A DNA stretch of 18,148 bases from a virus (taxonomy: Duplodnaviria > Heunggongvirae > Uroviricota > Caudoviricetes), in the IMG/VR virus record IMGVR_UViG_2703718826_000002; one strand, written 5' to 3'. Below, piece by piece: positions 457 to 15,189 of this stretch. Position 1 is the first letter of the stretch; each line of letters starts with the position of its first letter. A model generated the notes under the pieces. The model was not told the DNA's origin, made no database searches, and worked only from the letters and a program-made list of their open reading frames with translations. The position numbers and the translations under genes are program-made.

Positions 457-1308
457 ATGATAAATTATGTCTACGGCGAACAACTGTACCAGGAGTTCGT
501 CAGCTTCAGGGATCTCTTTCTAAAAAAAGCTGTTGCACGCGCCCAACACGTTGATACAGCCAGCGACGGTCGTCCTGTACGCCCGGTTGTCGTTCTACCG
601 TTCAAAGAAACTGACAGCATTCAGGCTGAAATTGATAAATGGACTTTAATGGCGCGGGAACTGGAACAGTACCCAGACCTCAATATCCCAAAGACTATTT
701 TATATCCAGTGCCTAACATCCTTCGCGGTGTGCGTAAGGTTACAACTTATCAGACAGAAGCTGTGAACAGCGTCAACATGACCGCTGGCCGCATTATTCA
801 TCTGATTGATAAGGACATTCGCATCCAAAAAAGCGCGGGGATCAATGAGCACAGTGCGAAATACATAGAGAACCTGGAAGCAACAAAAGAGCTAATGAAG
901 CAGTACCCGGAGGATGAAAAATTCCGTATGCGCGTACACGGCTTTAGCGAAACAATGCTGCGCGTCCACTACATTTCCAGTAGCCCTAACTACAATGATG
1001 GTAAATCAGTTAGTTACCATGTGCCACTGTGTGGCGTGTTTATCTGCGATGAAACTCTCCGTGATGGAATTATCATCAACGGTGAATTCGAAAAAGCAAA
1101 ATTTAGCCTTTATGACTCCATAGAACCGATCATCTGCGACCGCTGGCCGCAAGCAAAAATATATCGCCTGGCAGATATTGAAAATGTAAAAAAACAAATT
1201 GCCATCACTCGCGAAGAGAAAAAGGTTAAGTCAGCCGCATCAGTTACGCGCAGCCGTAAAACCAAGAAGGGGCAGCCAGTAAACGACAACCCCGAAAGCG
1301 CGCAATAA
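457..1308 (+). CDS. hypothetical phage/plasmid protein (283 aa) with basic C-terminal tail; possibly replication-associated
   Basis: Long ORF with strong RBS GGAGGAGG 6 nt upstream of ATG. Lys/Arg-rich C-terminus suggests nucleic-acid binding. Family assignment (RepL-like or YagK/YfjJ-like) could not be verified. Confidence 0.6.
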   Translation: MINYVYGEQLYQEFVSFRDLFLKKAVARAQHVDTASDGRPVRPVVVLPFKETDSIQAEIDKWTLMARELEQYPDLNIPKTILYPVPNILRGVRKVTTYQTEAVNSVNMTAGRIIHLIDKDIRIQKSAGINEHSAKYIENLEATKELMKQYPEDEKFRMRVHGFSETMLRVHYISSSPNYNDGKSVSYHVPLCGVFICDETLRDGIIINGEFEKAKFSLYDSIEPIICDRWPQAKIYRLADIENVKKQIAITREEKKVKSAASVTRSRKTKKGQPVNDNPESAQ

Positions 1309-1311
1309 ATT

Positions 1312-1333
1312 ATGCCCGGCATCAACCGGGCAT
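1312..1333. terminator. hairpin (8-bp stem ATGCCCGG/CCGGGCAT, 6-nt loop) between convergent genes; candidate bidirectional terminator
   Basis: Perfect inverted repeat 4 nt after the stop of the 283-aa gene; moderately U-rich flanks on both strands. Confidence 0.4.
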
Positions 1334-1558
1334 TCTTCCATTATTCAGCCGCCACCGGTTTTAACAAGCCAGCATCGAGCAGTTTACGCGTCAACCACTG
1401 CTGGCCTTTACCCGTTAATTGAGGCGTCAACCGTATCTGGTAGCCATCTTCATCATCCAGCACCACTTCTTTCACCGTGAAATACCCGCGTTGATGTACT
1501 GCTGGAACGGTACATTTTTACGGCCTCCGGACGCTATCAGAATGCCGTTCTCCCGTAA

Positions 1559-2455
1559 CTAGGCAAACAGCGCATTTTGTTTAAGTCCAACGACCTTTGC
1601 AAAATTCCCAATCAGGATCCCTTTAGCTACTGATACCCGGTCGGCAAAATCGACTTTAGAAGCGGCAGCCACCAGCTGCTGATTTAGCTGGTGGGCTTTC
1701 TGTTCCAGAAGTTGCTTTTGTTCAGCTAACTCGGCAGCCAGGCGCAGAGCTTCTGGAAGCGTCTGGGGGATTGCGACCGGTTGCTGTTCTTTTTGTCGGA
1801 AGTAGCTGTCTTCCAGTTTTTCAAAGAATGCCCATGCCTGATCGGTTTCGAGCATTTTAGCGTGACGGGCAGCTCCTCGTTCTGTCCAGAGGATGAGAGA
1901 GCGCGCTTTGGGGGAGACTGGATTTTGTGAGTAGTTTAAAGCTACCCGCAAATTTTTCAGCTCATCGCCAATAACCTTGAAAAAGTGCTTCGCTTCAACA
2001 AAGCGTACTTTGTTCTCATGATGATTCTGGCGAATGCGAATCGCTTCTGTACCATACCCCTTAGCAAGAGTTTCGGTTGTTACGACACGCACTCCCTGCC
2101 ACTCCAGAACGGGAATTTCATCCGACTGATTTTGAACAACCACCAGCTCTGATTCCTGAACTGAAGGTGCATGAACTTTTTCTGATTTAACGTTAGTAGC
2201 TTTCATTCTGTGTGCCTCCTTGCGTGCTTCGGCTGCGACGGTTGCGTAATTCAGATGCCCCTGTTCGAGCAGGTATTCGCGGATATCAGACAGCAGGATG
2301 CGGTGAACTGCGTTCTTGTCCTTTCTCCGGTAAAGTTGTTTGGTGATCATGAAGTAGTTGGCAATAACGCCCGGTATATCCCTAGTACTGATACAGGCAG
2401 TGTGCTGTTCAATTGCCTCGATCATCTCTTCACGGGTAACTAATGACGTTCTCAT
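1559..2455 (-). CDS. phage antirepressor-family protein (Ant-like; Bro-N/ORF6N-like central region and KilA-C-like C-terminus)
   Basis: 298-aa ORF. Central motif VVTTETLAKGYG...VRFVEAKHFFKV and C-terminal VSVAKGILIGNFAKVVGL resemble antirepressor domains. Start overlaps upstream ORF stop (ATGA). Confidence 0.6.
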   Translation of the reverse strand: MRTSLVTREEMIEAIEQHTACISTRDIPGVIANYFMITKQLYRRKDKNAVHRILLSDIREYLLEQGHLNYATVAAEARKEAHRMKATNVKSEKVHAPSVQESELVVVQNQSDEIPVLEWQGVRVVTTETLAKGYGTEAIRIRQNHHENKVRFVEAKHFFKVIGDELKNLRVALNYSQNPVSPKARSLILWTERGAARHAKMLETDQAWAFFEKLEDSYFRQKEQQPVAIPQTLPEALRLAAELAEQKQLLEQKAHQLNQQLVAAASKVDFADRVSVAKGILIGNFAKVVGLKQNALFA

Positions 2456-2673
2456 AGTCCCTCCTGAGCAGAAGCGTTAACAGGGAGGCACCAGTAACTG
2501 AGAGAATTGCGCAAATCGGTTGAAAAGCGGGCAGAGAAAATGCAGGGAGCGTCAGGAAGCTGAGAATGGGCCTCATCTTCTGTCGGTGCAATAACGAAGT
2601 GATAGTGACGTTTTTGGCAGGAGTAAAAGCGCCAGATAAATTCAGGATGAATTGGGGTAGGGACAGTAGCCAT
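2452..2673 (-). CDS. small protein (73 aa) translationally coupled to the antirepressor; icd-like position
   Basis: Strong RBS AAAGGAGG 8 nt upstream of ATG; ATGA overlap with the Ant-like gene, as in P1 immI icd-ant coupling. Confidence 0.5.
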   Translation of the reverse strand: MATVPTPIHPEFIWRFYSCQKRHYHFVIAPTEDEAHSQLPDAPCIFSARFSTDLRNSLSYWCLPVNASAQEGL

Positions 2674-2858
2674 AATGGCAGCCTCCTTTGACTAAGTTAA
2701 GGAGCTACCGCGTGAGGTCTCAATCTCAATGGCGGTAGCACTGACTGGGTTGAGACTACCGGCGTCAAAGGGAACCGGCCTGCCTTTCGGCAGCCCAGCC
2801 AGCACTACCATTGATTTCGGAGCTAAACGCTACGTATGGCTGTGCGATGGCATGACAC

Positions 2859-2881
2859 AAAAAAAGACGCTTTCGGCGTCT
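2859..2881 (-). terminator. intrinsic terminator (minus strand): stem GACGC/GCGTC, loop CGAAA, followed by U7
   Basis: GC stem-loop immediately followed by seven U in minus-strand sense; sits between the operator-controlled promoter at about 2990-3015 and the icd-like gene. Confidence 0.55.
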
Positions 2882-2980
2882 GTGTCGCCTTTGACATTAT
2901 CCGGGGTCTCAATCCCGGCACCCGTTTTAATGAGGTGCCTGATAAGCATAAACCGAAAATGCCTCAAGGCGCAAGAGGTC
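2882..2980 (-). ncRNA. candidate short structured transcript or leader (c4-like antisense-RNA position)
   Basis: About 100-115 nt between the predicted promoter (-10 TACATT at 2987-2992) and the terminator; contains stem-loops (CCGGG...CCCGG). No convincing protein-coding frame. Confidence 0.2.
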
Positions 2981-2986
2981 AGGTTC

Positions 2987-3029
2987 AATGTAACATCGGC
3001 AGTCAAAAAACACAATTTATTAGAGCAAG
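2987..3029 (-). promoter_or_regulatory. C1-type operator (3013-3029, CTTGCTCTAATAAATTG on minus strand, 15/17) overlapping the -35 (TTGTGT) of a promoter with -10 TACATT
   Basis: 17-mer begins 2 nt after the terminase stop codon; 17-nt spacer between hexamers. Confidence 0.5.
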
Positions 3030-3032
3030 TGT

Positions 3033-4160
3033 TTATTCATTAAGCCATGCCAGAGCTTCATCAACCTGCGCTTCGTCTTCGACGCTAAGCACTTCGTCCT
3101 GGGGAACATAATCCGCCAGCATAGCGAAACAATATGTATCCCAATGGTCTGGTGAGTGCAGGTTGAGTTTTTTCTTCATATCCTCCTTACTCATCACCTT
3201 CCATTGACCTGCGGAGTTAATCCCTACAGGGATTTTCGACGCTTCCTCAATAGTTTCATTACCCTTATCCAGTCTCATACGACCAGATTTTACGGCCTCT
3301 GCGGCTTGAACGTTGGCATAAGCACGTTTATCAAAGTACAGGCTCTTATCTTCACGGCTATGCATCTTTTTACCCCAGCGTATACGCTGTACGGTAATAC
3401 CATAATACTCGTACATCAGATCCGCCGTTGCTTTACCCAGGCCATCGCCGTCTATCGCTATGGTGATATTGGGGAATCGCTCAGGATTACATTCTGCGAA
3501 AATTTTGGCGGCAAGCTGCGTTTCTGTAACGTCTGTGTATTCCAGCATTCGATAGTTGATTACACGGCGTTTATTTCGCTGGCCGGACACCATCATGATA
3601 TTGATAAAGGACTTATCCCGTCCTGTACCACCAGCAACGTCCACACATGCAAGCCAGCCCCATCCTTTGGCAATCTTGACTTTCCGCCGCGTCGCACGTT
3701 CAACCTCATCACGTCCAAGAAGGAAGCCGTCCTGTAATTTAGGGAATAGGCCGCGTACCTTAATCATGTACATAGGGTTATCACGCCCGCCGTACTCCGC
3801 CAGCTTCATTTTGATAAATTCTGACGTTACCAGCGGTGATTCCTCACTGTTAAGCGTGATCGCCGTATAAACGCCATCTGGGTTACCAGGACGCTTGGCC
3901 AGTTTATGGTGAGTATCGTAGAAATAGCCGCTTGGGCGTGTAGGCTGTGACAGTAATAAGATGCGGTTATCCTGTCCGGTAAGAGCACCGGTGATGATAC
4001 CGAAAGCTCTATCACTGACACCGGAGGCTTCATCGATAATATACAGAAGATGATCTGCGTGTTCACCGGCGAGAACTTCTTCACTTCCCAGACGAAAGCC
4101 CTTCGGTACTACAGTCCATACACCTTTACCAGTAGACTGGCCCCCTGAATCTCCAGACAA
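3033..4160 (-). CDS. terminase large subunit, C-terminal portion (Walker B plus nuclease domain); gene interrupted upstream
   Basis: 375-aa ORF starting at a TTG; contains Walker B-like [11 protein letters not shown] and acidic nuclease-domain motifs. In-frame stop 3 codons upstream of the putative start. Confidence 0.75.
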
Positions 4161-4165
4161 CCAGT

Positions 4166-4183
4166 ATCACTTATTTAAGTGAT
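4166..4183. repeat. 18-bp perfect palindrome ATCACTTATTTAAGTGAT at the break between the two terminase ORFs
   Basis: Revcomp of ATCACTTA is TAAGTGAT; provides stop codons in all three minus-strand frames. Confidence 0.8.
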
Positions 4184-4605
4184 AACAGGTGTCTGGAAAT
4201 ATAGGGGCAAATCCAACCAGTAACCTCATAGAAAGCGGTTTCTGTCAGAACAAAATAATCAGCAAGCCATGGAAAACGGCTGGTGGCAGTAGCCCAGTTT
4301 ATCTTGATGTACTTGAATATACCGGTCATTACCTGCTGAATTTTGTTCGCAACGATAATGGCGCGGGCACCGGGATACATGATTATGAACAACATGATCA
4401 TGATAGAAGTCATGTCTGATTTCCCGGTACCGTGACCAGACGAAACAGATGTCTTGCTACCCTGTTCCTGCACAGACTCAATAATCAGATCCTGCTGCCA
4501 GGTAGGTGTTTTGCCGAACAAAACATCAGCGGCCGCAATCCAGTCATAACGATATAGCGCCACCAGCTCGCGCCAACGTGGATCCGTTACGCAACTTCTG
4601 GCCAT
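4171..4605 (-). CDS. terminase large subunit, N-terminal portion (Walker A SGHGTGKS)
   Basis: 144-aa ORF with P-loop; ends in TAA inside the palindrome. Start overlaps the stop of the upstream acidic protein (TAATG). Confidence 0.7.
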
Positions 4606-4976: not shown

Positions 4977-5236
4977 TGACCAGTTATTTTCACGCTTTCG
5001 TTCGTACTGTCATCAATCAAAACAGACGAATACTTAGACACAGCGATAGCTTTTAAGCGCAGATAAACATCGCGCTTATCGACATCCAGATGCGGGTATT
5101 CCTTTTCAAGAATTGCTGCGAGTTCTTTCGCTGATAGAAGAGATTTAGTGCGGATCATGTAATTCGCAATCTCGTACGATGTTATTCGTGAGTGATTTAT
5201 TTCCATGAAGTGGCGTCCCTGCCAGTTAAGTAACAT
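4922..5236 (-). CDS. putative N-terminal (DNA-binding) part of the small terminase-like protein; C-terminal tail likely out of frame
   Basis: 104-aa ORF; alternative start at 5206 (MEINH...). Last 18 residues ([18 protein letters not shown]) are the alternate-frame reading of the 123-aa ORF N-terminus. Confidence 0.4.
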
Positions 5237-5281: not shown

Positions 5282-5323
5282 ATAATACCATCGATTAAAG
5301 AAATAGCAATACATTAGAGCAAT
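5282..5323 (-). promoter_or_regulatory. C1-type operator (5307-5323, ATTGCTCTAATGTATTG on minus strand, 14/17) overlapping promoter (-35 TTGCTA, -10 TATTAT)
   Basis: Begins immediately after the stop of the 347-aa gene and precedes the packaging genes; 16-nt spacer between hexamers. Confidence 0.45.
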
Positions 5324-13638: not shown

Positions 13639-13655
13639 AGATTTATTAGAGCAAT
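13639..13655 (-). promoter_or_regulatory. C1-type operator (ATTGCTCTAATAAATCT on minus strand, 16/17 to consensus)
   Basis: Best consensus match in the window; immediately follows the TAA stop of the HAD gene; promoter-like TTGATT-N17-GAAAAT downstream. Confidence 0.55.
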
Positions 13656-15123: not shown

Positions 15124-15189
15124 ATTGCTCTAATAAAAAACGTGATGAGTGTACATCACGTTTTAAAAATATGGAATTATTAGAGCAAT
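15124..15189. promoter_or_regulatory. dual inverted C1-type operators (15124-15140 plus strand; 15173-15189 minus strand) flanking a perfect hairpin terminator (15140-15161)
   Basis: ATTGCTCTAATAAAAAA and revcomp ATTGCTCTAATAATTCC (each 14/17); central stem ACGTGATG/CATCACGT with A/T tracts on both sides. Confidence 0.55.

Follow-up and report, generated by a model that had tools for sequence, protein, structure and literature searches.

A probable P1 immI-type immunity cassette with IsrK and C4 RNAs in an RCS47-like P1 phage-plasmid, between pacB and c1

The closest described relatives of the locus reported here are the immI regions of phages P1 and P7; in the P1 homologue, repression by the antisense RNA C4 through two target sites, a2 and b2, has been demonstrated experimentally. 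The P1 GenBank record annotates a1, b1, a2 and b2 at positions homologous to those found here, with their role stated, and its note on the equivalent b2 site reads 'repression of icd ant translation'. A second system is isrK-orf45(STnc1160)-anrP of Gifsy-1, where the short IsrK RNA binds the C4 region and activates translation of the antirepressor in trans (PMC4825925), and where the pairs G28-C162 and G31-C159 control both anrP translation and IsrK binding (PMC4825925). Binding of Hfq and trans-activation of downstream translation by IsrK are known only for Gifsy-1 (PMC4825925). In P4 (seqA - CI RNA/seqB - seqC), the RNA causes premature termination of the replication operon and does not control icd-ant (PMC3632133, PMC4825925). 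The equivalence of IsrK with seqA and of C4 with CI has been stated in both of these papers, and the name 'IsrK-C4 immunity system' is already in PMC3632133; in the APSE paper, IsrK was considered an unrelated sRNA and a1/b1 were not assigned to it.

The window, that is, the whole 18,148-nt stretch of IMG/VR virus record IMGVR_UViG_2703718826_000002, carries on its minus strand what is probably an IsrK–C4 immunity cassette of the P1 immI type, in which C4 would block icd and ant and an IsrK-like RNA would counter C4. A system of this kind is already known, and the locus is real but ordinary. The parts of the cassette were observed at the following coordinates:

3029-3013, minus strand: predicted C1 repressor operator (P1 Oc4/Op51 equivalent), cTTGCTCTAATAAATTg, from a consensus match and alignment with annotated P1 Oc4
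3015-2987, minus strand: predicted operator-overlapped promoter (P1 P2c4/P51a-like), from positional homology to annotated P1 P2c4
2974-2945, minus strand: predicted cassette-intrinsic promoter (P1 P1c4/P51b-like), from conservation and alignment with annotated P1 P1c4
2938-2860, minus strand: IsrK-like small RNA (a1/b1 leader), 79 nt, from Rfam RF01394 isrK
2912-2906, minus strand: a1, UUGAGAC, in the loop of IsrK hairpin 2; exact complement of a' and identical to a2
2895-2888, minus strand: b1, GUCAAAGG, in the IsrK linker, immediately before the terminator; exact complement of b' and identical to b2
2881-2859, minus strand: intrinsic terminator of the IsrK-like RNA, from a terminator scan; the 3' hairpin of the Rfam isrK model
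2815-2728, minus strand: C4 antisense RNA gene, from Rfam RF01695, fold and helix covariation
2771-2764, minus strand: b', CCUUUGAC, in the second hairpin loop of C4; complement of both b1 and b2
2756-2750, minus strand: a', GUCUCAA, single-stranded C4 junction; complementary to a1 and a2
2723-2717, minus strand: a2 target, UUGAGAC, 5 nt 3' of the Rfam C4 match; complementary to a'
2711-2704, minus strand: mimic of the C4 5' stem strand, GCGGUAGC, the third GGTAG element; can pair with the C4 3' strand at 2739-2732
2692-2685, minus strand: b2 target, GUCAAAGG, overlapping the icd Shine-Dalgarno sequence AAGGAGG at 2688-2682
2673-2452, minus strand: icd, 73 aa, cell-division inhibitor homologue, from NCBIfam NF033153 and identity with P1 Icd
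2455-1341, minus strand: ant antirepressor, disrupted, from Pfam domains and alignment with intact RCS47 ant

An operator had been proposed within 2987-3029 from the sequence alone, and one is present there: cTTGCTCTAATAAATTg, at 3029-3013, shares 15 of its 17 positions with ATTGCTCTAATAAATTT, the consensus of P1 C1 operators, and the whole window holds six C1 operator-like sites (at most three mismatches) against 0.07 expected. The operator-overlapped promoter would comprise a -35 element TTGTGT (3015-3010), a 17-nt spacer and a -10 element TACATT (2992-2987); its -35 shares the last 3 nt of the operator, as does that of annotated P1 P2c4. Located 42 nt downstream is the predicted intrinsic promoter (-35 TTGCGC at 2974-2969, 18-nt spacer, -10 TATGCT at 2950-2945), with G2938 as the predicted transcription start. 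A TANNNT motif beginning at -12 from the first nucleotide of IsrK was found in all 33 distinct homologous cassettes examined, together with a TTG.. motif near -36 in these 33 upstream sequences. A generic sigma-70 scan detected neither minus-strand promoter, both being weak relative to the consensus, and the two predictions therefore rest on homology and conservation. The short RNA would measure 79 nt from the intrinsic promoter and ~120 nt from the operator-controlled one. The intrinsic promoter (2974-2945), directly upstream of the short RNA, had been overlooked in the sequence-only reading.

The short RNA, which that reading had tentatively regarded as C4-like, matched Rfam RF01394 isrK instead, over its full length (60.2 bits, gathering 50; E = 6e-11; model positions 1-77). 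It folds at -24.9 kcal/mol (z = -2.4), and its hairpins (hairpin 1 at 2938-2918, hairpin 2 at 2917-2902) are 87-89% paired, with compensatory changes, among 47 cassettes. The strong intrinsic terminator proposed at 2859-2881 was found at the same coordinates. That is, a stem AGACGC-CGAAA-GCGUCU at 2881-2865 runs into seven T residues (2865-2859), the first of which closes the stem; the T-run is invariant across cassettes. The short RNA thus has the own promoter and the three-hairpin form with a Rho-independent terminator that define isrK, and the order isrK, C4-family RNA, antirepressor-type gene is the same in the window as in the type locus, Gifsy-1. The tandem order of isrK followed by C4 was seen in 18 of 18 test loci with a C4 match (a set that includes P7, D6, Stx phages and APSE), as well as in P1 and Gifsy-1. 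With the Rfam model RF03163 c4-a1b1, the leader scored 22.3 bits at 2951-2898, below the gathering threshold of 46.7, which the P1, P7 and Gifsy-1 leaders pass; a1 and b1 of the window leader are complementary to a' and b', as in the functional definition of c4-a1b1. Conservation of the strong terminator and of the dedicated promoter suggests that the short RNA stands as an independent product.

The C4 gene itself is the structured leader that had been described past the terminator. Thus, the proposed search with C4-family covariance models did return a C4 match, at 2815-2728 and not in the short RNA (RF01695, 75.4 bits, gathering 45; E = 2e-13). This region folds very stably (-46.5 kcal/mol, z = -5.3, none of 200 shuffles being as good), and across 47 cassettes pairing in its three helices is 97-100%, 18 of the 27 pairs having changed on both sides. 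Alignment with the mapped 77-nt C4 of P1 places the predicted mature RNA at ~2809-2731, which like its homologues has a long stem and then a GCCA tail, and we infer that C4 would be excised from the read-through transcript as an RNA of ~79 nt, with RNase P acting at its 5' end. The GGTAG repeats noticed earlier are real; they comprise the 5' strand of the C4 stem together with a mimic of it further downstream. The alternative helix that the mimic can form (2739-2732/2711-2704) is 95.2% paired across cassettes, with both-side changes in 6 of 8 pairs, and it appears in the minimum-free-energy fold of the full 289-nt read-through transcript (-115 kcal/mol, z = -5.4), in which a1 also pairs with a', and b1 with b', in cis. 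A hairpin predicted in the window to hide the icd Shine-Dalgarno sequence (2709-2699 with 2688-2677) was rejected, being 70.6% paired against 65% in a slid control. A 39-codon ORF over C4 (2811-2692), which ends 18 nt before icd, was likewise not retained as a gene of the cassette: its length is not conserved (14, 15, 31, 37 or 39 codons, or no stop within 100 codons, depending on the cassette), and it is taken to be the conceptual translation of a conserved RNA gene. It bears the RefSeq name 'ash family protein' and matches Pfam Phage_ASH with 28.3 bits; translation of its Gifsy-1 counterpart, orf45, has been reported (PMC4825925).

The sequence GATTGAGACC is present twice in the same sense, at 2914-2905 in the short RNA and at 2725-2716 in the icd leader, the 10-nt repeat around a1 being GAUUGAGACC (2914-2905); GTCAAAGG is also present twice in the same sense, at 2895-2888 and 2692-2685. 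The earlier failure to see complementarity between the short RNA and the icd ribosome-binding site is therefore borne out, since this RNA carries same-sense copies, a1 and b1, of the target sites. Predicted pairing with the icd initiation region does exist, but for the next RNA downstream: C4 is exactly complementary to the icd leader over 7 nt (a) and 8 nt (b) by means of a' and b'. Because the partner is C4, the lack of pairing by the short RNA does not refute an immI-like mechanism. Among 47 diverse cassettes, the a':a2, b':b2 and a1:a' contacts are 92.9%, 94.6% and 93.7% paired, with both-side changes in 6 of 7, 7 of 8 and 6 of 7 pairs, respectively, and b1 covaries with b'; slid controls were 29-53% paired. 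None of 500 shuffles attained the observed score for covariation of a'/b' with a1/b1 and a2/b2, and none of 20,000 shuffles of either target carried both sites in order. The a2 site is displayed in a 3-bp mini-hairpin (GAG/CUC; 92.9% paired, 3 of 3 pairs compensatory). Taken alone, the a' contact with the icd leader was not significant (shuffle fraction 0.083), and whole-molecule duplexes between C4 and either partner, the IsrK-like RNA or the icd leader, were no better than shuffles (z ~-1.5); in cofolding with its partners C4 stays folded and the loop contacts are missed. Both methods are uninformative here. Among the cassettes parsed out of 125 distinct sequences, 41 combinations of 16 a' with 23 b' variants were seen, and in each of them a1, a2, b1 and b2 match. 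Moreover, closely related cassettes differ preferentially in these six sites, by coordinated 2+2+2 changes. This three-way covariation shows that the upstream site copies are under the same selection as the real targets.

Downstream of C4, the 73-aa ORF with a strong ribosome-binding site was confirmed (2673-2452, Shine-Dalgarno AAGGAGG at 2688-2682), and its product matches NCBIfam NF033153 phage_ICD_like (E = 3e-12) and is 78% identical to P1 Icd over residues 10-73. Its coupling to an Ant-like gene stands as far as the overlap is concerned, the icd stop sharing ATGA (2455-2452) with the ant start, but the Ant ORF is not intact. Compared with the intact 371-aa ant of RCS47, it has a nonsense codon (TGG to TAG at 1561-1559) and a frameshift (1-bp deletion near 1487/1488), and the Pfam ORF6N and KilAC (ANT) domains are divided over two ORFs, of which a 298-aa Ant fragment retains the N-terminal and ORF6N parts. 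The window copy of ant is therefore a pseudogene, and the switch may have no antirepressor output there. The RCS47 Ant, compared in place of the window Ant because the latter is broken, is 54% identical to P1 Ant1.

The C4 score, the identities of Icd and of the stand-in Ant, and the alignment of the operator and promoters with P1 Oc4, P2c4 and P1c4 bear out the immI-like layout that had been recognized in the sequence. P1 and P7 immI share with the window the order of parts, with the C1 operator over the upstream -35 and a second promoter downstream, the a1/b1 copies, the C4 fold, the contacts of a' and b' with a2 and with a b2 overlapping the Shine-Dalgarno sequence, and icd overlapping ant. 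They differ in that P1 and P7 have intact ant1/ant2, whereas the window ant is broken; in the a/b specificity, which is GUCUCAA/CCUUUGAC in the window and CUGUCAA/CACUAAC in P1; and in the leader, which is a strong isrK-type terminated RNA in the window (60 bits) but reaches only 35 bits for isrK in P1, with a weak hairpin. Neither the first nine codons of Icd nor the middle of Ant shares its origin with the P1 counterpart. In D6, b' is CCUUUUGC, compared with CCUUUGAC in the window.

The Gifsy-1 locus (PMC4825925) is built alike from a promoter, IsrK and its terminator, a C4-family RNA, a2/b2 and an antirepressor gene (isrK at 34316-34240, C4 at 34214-34131, anrP ATG at 34076), and read-through and terminated isoforms are expected likewise in the window. 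The published Gifsy-1 compensatory pairs G28-C162 and G31-C159 (numbered from IsrK +1) are exactly a1:a' pairs. Unlike the window, Gifsy-1 lacks icd and a C1 operator, and its downstream protein families differ. P4 resembles the window in that a mimic precedes a processed C4-like RNA and the target follows it; its DNA similarity is confined to the C4-like segment (76% over 149 nt), whereas the window flanking genes are of P1 type, and P4 immunity lacks a C1 operator. APSE and Stx phages (LR794151, LC710660) have the same Rfam tandem upstream of a BRO/Rha/Ant-type gene, in lambdoid or APSE backbones and without a C1 operator or icd, and APSE-7 has the same a code as the window, GUCUCAA.

The cassette is an extra, ectopic module in an RCS47-like P1 phage-plasmid. 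That is, it lies between pacB and c1, a placement common to the window, RCS47 and pTZ20_1P, and not at the P1 map position of immI between sim and kilA-repL, which sets it apart from immI proper; a canonical P1-type immI is additionally present in related IMG/VR contigs. The region was matched in ~8% of complete E. coli genomes (421 of 5,426), nearly always on P1-like plasmids, and at least 80% of it was covered in 191 of those 421. It is possible, though somewhat doubtful, that the cassette in this plasmid is a decaying relic without regulatory output. Besides the two lesions in ant, pacB is interrupted by an IS2-end remnant of 81 bp and the 5' part of pacA is missing, so that the element looks like a defective prophage-plasmid. 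However, the 376-bp regulatory region is 99-100% identical to copies beside intact ant (in RCS47 and many plasmids), icd and c1 (457-1308 of the window) are intact, the remaining Ant fragment keeps its N-terminal and ORF6N parts, and the RNAs could still act in trans on elements with the same a/b code.

In the IsrK–C4 cassette as we understand it, transcription would be driven by two promoters, one overlapped by the C1 operator and repressed in the lysogen, the other the conserved cassette promoter. Most transcripts would probably end at the intrinsic terminator, giving the ~79-nt IsrK-like RNA that displays a1 and b1, and read-through transcripts would carry C4, which by homology with P1 would be excised as a stable tRNA-like RNA. 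Loop b' of C4 would pair with b2 over the icd Shine-Dalgarno sequence and junction a' with a2, blocking icd translation and, since ant overlaps icd, ant expression along with it. Since both sites of the mRNA recur in the IsrK-like RNA, the latter could compete for C4 as an anti-antisense RNA or target mimic, favouring antirepressor expression; loss of C1 would reinforce this by letting the operator-controlled promoter fire. It is in this sense that we infer a sponge role for the short RNA, the stoichiometry among the RNAs and the control of the cassette by C1. With an efficient terminator, the mimic would outnumber C4 even in the lysogen, and the scheme would then need differing RNA stabilities or another role for a1/b1. 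Furthermore, the simple repressor-and-sponge picture fits poorly with Gifsy-1, since constitutive co-expression of the C4-containing region strengthened IsrK-dependent growth arrest there (PMC4825925). The Gifsy-1 authors explained activation by translation of the ORF overlapping C4 (PMC4825925); orf45, reportedly needed for coupling, ends on the anrP start codon, whereas the window ORF stops short of icd. Details of the mechanism may therefore differ from Gifsy-1, because the C4-overlapping ORF is not conserved and ends 18 nt before icd.

It is unlikely that the a1/b1 leader acts only in cis, on C4 folding or processing or within a silent precursor mRNA, with the short RNA as a by-product of attenuation. 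The cis pairing of a1 with a' and b1 with b' in the read-through fold would agree with this, as would the translationally inactive 'structure A' of Gifsy-1, which has the same pairing (PMC4825925), and the covarying alternative helix, which shows competing precursor folds. However, the short IsrK of Gifsy-1 binds the C4 region in vitro and activates translation in trans, an activity lost in G28A and G31A, and the strong terminator and dedicated promoter are conserved in all cassettes.

Quite improbable as the main mode of action is a P4-like control of termination, in which C4 on nascent a1/b1 would enforce the IsrK terminator and/or Rho-dependent termination in icd, so that immunity would act mainly on elongation and C4 would limit its own synthesis; such control is compatible with the mechanism proposed above and not exclusive of it. 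In its favour, the C4 region is 76% identical to the P4 immunity region where the two align, premature termination is how the P4 CI RNA works via seqA and seqC, only 6 nt separate b1 from the terminator stem downstream of it, and in P1 Rho-dependent polarity follows when C4 blocks icd translation. The idea was also raised for STnc1160 by the Gifsy-1 authors (PMC4825925). Against it, no conserved antiterminator structure was identified here, and IsrK supplied in trans in Gifsy-1 changed the downstream mRNA slightly but its translation strongly (PMC4825925). Finally, the short RNA (2938-2860) might itself be taken for the C4-like antisense repressor, pairing with the icd ribosome-binding region, since it is small and structured, has a terminator and, like C4 in P1, precedes icd-ant. 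This is hardly credible and is already refuted by its sequence: it matches isrK and not C4, a stronger, separate C4 match lies downstream, it holds icd-leader sequences (a1 = a2, b1 = b2) and not their complements, and in every homologue the a1/b1 sites are complementary to C4.

Beyond the IsrK–C4 cassette reading itself, we would put forward only tentatively, and with some doubt, that IsrK-type RNAs are dedicated anti-C4 decoys and that diversifying selection acts on the a and b sites as the two keys of a combinatorial code, with orthogonal immunity groups and cross-talk between prophages; behind the two-key reading stand at least 16 a and 23 b variants in 41 combinations. If this were true, the code would define many immunity groups common to phages of the P1-like, D6-like, lambdoid and APSE kinds, a P1-like plasmid with two cassettes of differing code could sense or provoke co-resident phages of matching code in trans, and prophages would communicate at the RNA level.

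The published description of the inserted segment mentions only 'two hypothetical ORFs and an antirepressor', and among the RefSeq records listed by our search no RNA feature was annotated under the match. The practical value of the present analysis therefore lies in correcting annotation: RNAs that are unannotated receive names, and a CDS entered as 'ash family protein' in the RefSeq records listed is identified as the C4 gene. Current understanding of C4-type immunity is left as it was; the conceptual gain is that the P1 a1/b1 sites, the Rfam isrK and c4-a1b1 families and orf45/STnc1160 of Gifsy-1, which had been named separately, are united as one cassette.

A scan of the window against Rfam with curated thresholds gave exactly two matches above threshold, both on the minus strand, one to isrK and one to the C4 antisense RNA. 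The short terminated RNA is therefore an IsrK-family RNA, and the structured GGTAG-containing leader that follows it is the C4 RNA. The P1 immI-like layout proposed in the sequence-only reading was correct in outline: the operator, the terminator, the structured leader and a 73-aa ORF overlapping an Ant-like ORF were all found on the minus strand, with a C4 match, an Icd homologue, antirepressor domains and P1-like operator and promoter positions. However, that reading had given the C4-like role to the wrong RNA, namely the short terminated one. The pairing it had looked for with the icd RBS region does not exist for the short RNA, which carries the same site sequences as the target, but does exist for the C4 RNA downstream, which carries exact complements. 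The short RNA and the icd RBS region have these sites in common, both complementary to C4, and hence offered no mutual complementarity to be seen. The parts of the cassette, from upstream to downstream, are:

3029-3013, minus strand: predicted C1 operator cTTGCTCTAATAAATTg, 15 of 17 positions as in the P1 C1 consensus
3015-2987, minus strand: operator-overlapped promoter, -35 TTGTGT (3015-3010), 17-nt spacer, -10 TACATT (2992-2987), position equivalent to P1 P2c4/P51a
2974-2945, minus strand: cassette promoter, -35 TTGCGC (2974-2969), 18-nt spacer, -10 TATGCT (2950-2945), aligned with the annotated P1 P1c4/P51b
2938-2860, minus strand: isrK match (60.2 bits, threshold 50)
2912-2906, minus strand: a1, UUGAGAC, loop of IsrK hairpin 2, exact complement of a'
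2895-2888, minus strand: b1, GUCAAAGG, IsrK linker, exact complement of b'
2881-2859, minus strand: intrinsic terminator, from a terminator scan
2815-2728, minus strand: C4 match (75.4 bits, threshold 45)
2771-2764, minus strand: b', CCUUUGAC, loop of the second C4 hairpin
2756-2750, minus strand: a', GUCUCAA, single-stranded junction of C4
2723-2717, minus strand: a2, UUGAGAC, 5 nt downstream of the C4 match, exact complement of a'
2692-2685, minus strand: b2, GUCAAAGG, over the icd Shine-Dalgarno sequence, exact complement of b'
2673-2452, minus strand: icd, 73 aa, AAGGAGG upstream, NF033153, 78% identity to P1 Icd over residues 10-73

The C4 segment folds very stably (-46.5 kcal/mol, z = -5.3), and a1 and a2 each sit in the same 10-mer, GAUUGAGACC. 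Loop-level duplex energies for the b' contacts were -12.7 and -13.4 kcal/mol (fractions of shuffles at least as good, 0.008 and 0.013), and -9.1 kcal/mol for the a' contacts (0.083 for the icd leader, 0.023 for the IsrK-like RNA). Both exact sites occurred in order in none of 20,000 dinucleotide shuffles, for either target. Furthermore, isrK is followed by C4, with 20-45 nt between them, in every examined locus with a C4 match (P1, P7, D6, RCS47-like IMG/VR contigs, Stx and other lambdoid phages, APSE-7, a Klebsiella phage and Gifsy-1). In 18 loci, a' complements a 7-mer at a constant place in IsrK and another just 3' of C4, and b' has complementary sites both in the IsrK linker and at the Shine-Dalgarno sequence of the gene that follows, while the site sequences themselves vary between phages.

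In a 47-sequence alignment of cassettes, the internal C4 helices were paired in 97-100% of cells, with both sides changed in 18 of 27 pairs. For the contacts, the corresponding figures were 94.6% and 7 of 8 pairs for b':b2, 92.9% and 6 of 7 for a':a2, 93.7% and 6 of 7 for a1:a', and 78% and 8 of 8 for b1:b', where an indel of 1 nt in the alignment depresses the percentage. The observed covariation score was not attained in any of 500 shuffles, and pairing in slid controls was 29-53%. Between close relatives the differences fall preferentially in the six short sites and are coordinated 2+2+2; for instance, the window and L036, a related cassette, show 11 differences, 6 of which lie in a1/a'/a2. 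The upstream copies a1 and b1 therefore share the constraint of the true targets.

The cassette was previously unannotated here, but this kind of system is already known. In the P1 GenBank record a1/b1 are putative C4 target sites, C4 represses icd and ant translation via a2/b2, and icd is apparently needed for ant expression. IsrK and C4 have been equated with P4 seqA and CI, and the term 'IsrK-C4 immunity system' is already published (PMC3632133); the two RNAs are nevertheless handled as unrelated in an APSE paper of 2020 and a review of 2025. In the Salmonella prophage Gifsy-1, isrK lies at 34316-34240, C4 is matched at 34214-34131 and anrP has its start codon at 34076; orf45 starts at an AUG at the 5' border of C4. 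With numbering from +1 of IsrK, a1 is nt 26-32 and a' nt 158-164, and the published compensatory pairs G28-C162 and G31-C159 are exact a1:a' pairs; experiments there showed that these pairs control the inactive structure, the binding of IsrK and the translation of anrP (PMC4825925). Rfam c4-a1b1 scores just 22.3 bits in the window, and in P1, P7, APSE-7, Kp4865-1 and Gifsy-1 its match and the 5' half of the isrK match overlap; isrK and c4-a1b1 are two descriptions of one element. The P1 immI leader with a1/b1 ends in a terminator-like hairpin (CCGCA-12 nt-TGCGG, then TATTTTT; 1404-1431 of the fetched P1 locus L003). Its isrK score of 35 bits is below threshold, and the classical leader of P1 may be a degenerate form of IsrK.

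The mechanism that we regard as probable, and as the best supported, is that C4 blocks icd and ant and the IsrK-like RNA counters C4, as suggested by analogy with the homologues in which alone C4 repression and IsrK trans-activation have been shown. C4 would be excised from read-through transcripts and occupy b2/Shine-Dalgarno and a2, blocking icd, a block that would extend to ant via the ATGA overlap of the icd stop with the start of the Ant-like ORF (ORF6N and KilAC antirepressor domains). The terminated IsrK-like RNA would display the same two sites and, at a suitable stoichiometry, compete for C4 as a decoy, so that antirepressor expression would be favoured. A simple repressor-and-sponge model is at odds with one published result: IsrK-dependent growth arrest in Gifsy-1 was enhanced by constitutive expression of the C4-containing region (PMC4825925).

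The three GGTAG copies on the minus strand lie in the outer stem of C4, on its 5' strand (2809-2802), at the 3' end of hairpin 2 and in the downstream octamer GCGGUAGC (2711-2704), a mimic of the C4 5' strand that is able to pair with the 3' strand of C4 (2739-2732). This alternative helix is 95.2% paired, with 6 of 8 pairs changed on both sides, and the minimum-free-energy structure of the read-through RNA (289 nt) contains it. Competing folds are thus conserved in the precursor, which implies a predicted, conserved folding switch in the unprocessed transcript. Inside the loop of the helix, a2 is displayed in a 3-bp mini-hairpin. These competing folds, and the pairing of a1/b1 with a'/b' in cis in the same read-through fold, speak for a1/b1 being purely a cis folding switch, as a rival or additional role, but short IsrK acts in trans in Gifsy-1, activating antirepressor translation and prophage induction (PMC4825925), and we consider the cis switch unlikely. 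A role of a1/b1 in P4-like control of termination, again as rival or addition, appears less likely still.

C1 at the upstream operator would add a layer of control to that by C4 and IsrK. The c1 gene is intact (457-1308), 1.7 kb from the operator-like 17-mer, and the 18-kb window has six C1-operator-like sites with at most three mismatches vs 0.07 expected by chance. The other five (346-362, 5307-5323, 13639-13655, 15124-15140 and 15173-15189; 1-3 mismatches to ATTGCTCTAATAAATTT) are predicted sites, as expected of a P1-type genome. The operator-overlapped promoter is specific to the P1 lineage, because D6 homology starts only at ~2982. In the 33 distinct cassettes with enough sequence upstream, TANNNT begins at -12 from IsrK nucleotide 1 in all 33, and the 33 upstream sequences listed have a TTG.. 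motif near -36. A generic promoter scan of the window reported neither minus-strand cassette promoter, both being weak by consensus.

The window is a P1-like phage-plasmid. Among phage records it is closest to Escherichia phage RCS47, at 93% over 1300-3100 and 99% over the regulatory region; IncY plasmids, e.g. E. coli H15 plasmid A, show 100% identity. The cassette sits between pacB and c1, whereas P1 immI occupies another map position. Of 5,426 complete E. coli genomes, 421 had matches to the 376-bp regulatory region (at least 80% of it covered in 191), and 439 of 456 places were on plasmids. Among the matches listed, RefSeq annotates no RNA feature under the region and labels the C4 segment a CDS for an 'ash family protein'. 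This name belongs to a 39-codon ORF overlapping C4 (2692-2811, minus strand; Pfam PF10554 Phage_ASH, 28.3 bits), whose counterpart in Gifsy-1 is 'orf45'. Across cassettes the ORF ranges from 14 to 39 codons or has no stop in 100 codons read; Phage_ASH may therefore partly be a translated conserved RNA gene. The initial icd codons, MAT(V/I)PT (2655-2673, minus strand), occur both in the 73-aa Icd and in unrelated proteins of 120-215 aa encoded downstream of the cassette in lambdoid phages, and therefore the mobile regulatory cassette seems to reach a few codons into the regulated gene; the first nine residues of P1 Icd differ.

This copy has intact RNA genes and intact icd and c1 genes. Compared with the unbroken 371-aa ant of RCS47, ant (1341-2455, minus strand) is a pseudogene: TGG has become TAG at 1561-1559, and 1 bp is deleted near 1487/1488; the broken sequence is also in at least two deposited plasmids, so a read error is unlikely. 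In addition, pacB is split at 4135-4215 by an 81-bp remnant consisting of both ends of an IS2-like insertion sequence, and pacA lacks its 5' part relative to RCS47 (about 5004-5006). At the same pacB point, E. coli H15 plasmid A has an extra 1,238 bp with an IS3-family transposase gene, the two flanks sharing 10 nt. The broken ant, split pacB and shortened pacA therefore make the plasmid look like a packaging-defective prophage, in which the cassette may be without antirepressor output.

An IMG/VR pattern scan, together with the loci fetched before, yielded 125 distinct cassettes that have an initiation region of this type. Of these, 114 could be parsed at fixed offsets, and among them a' occurs in 16 variants and b' in 23, forming 41 combinations; in this parse all four contacts were fully complementary in 32 of 44 distinct site sets, the others failing by one pair or by register. 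The near-identical P1/D6-like cassettes (the window, its relatives L036 and L034, and D6) hold all four combinations of two a and two b types, each specificity switch consisting of coordinated changes at three separate sites. Several P1-like IMG/VR contigs carry two icd loci (L016/L068, L048/L073, L025/L082, L063/L075 and L071/L074); the C4 sites, read for one locus per pair, are P1-type, and the partner was classed solely by its DNA similarity to the window cassette, which suggests that its a/b code differs. L071 and L074, on the same contig, are two P1-type cassettes with a shared a' and different b'. Judged from these sequences, the a and b sites appear to form a combinatorial code, which looks like diversifying selection on immunity specificity.
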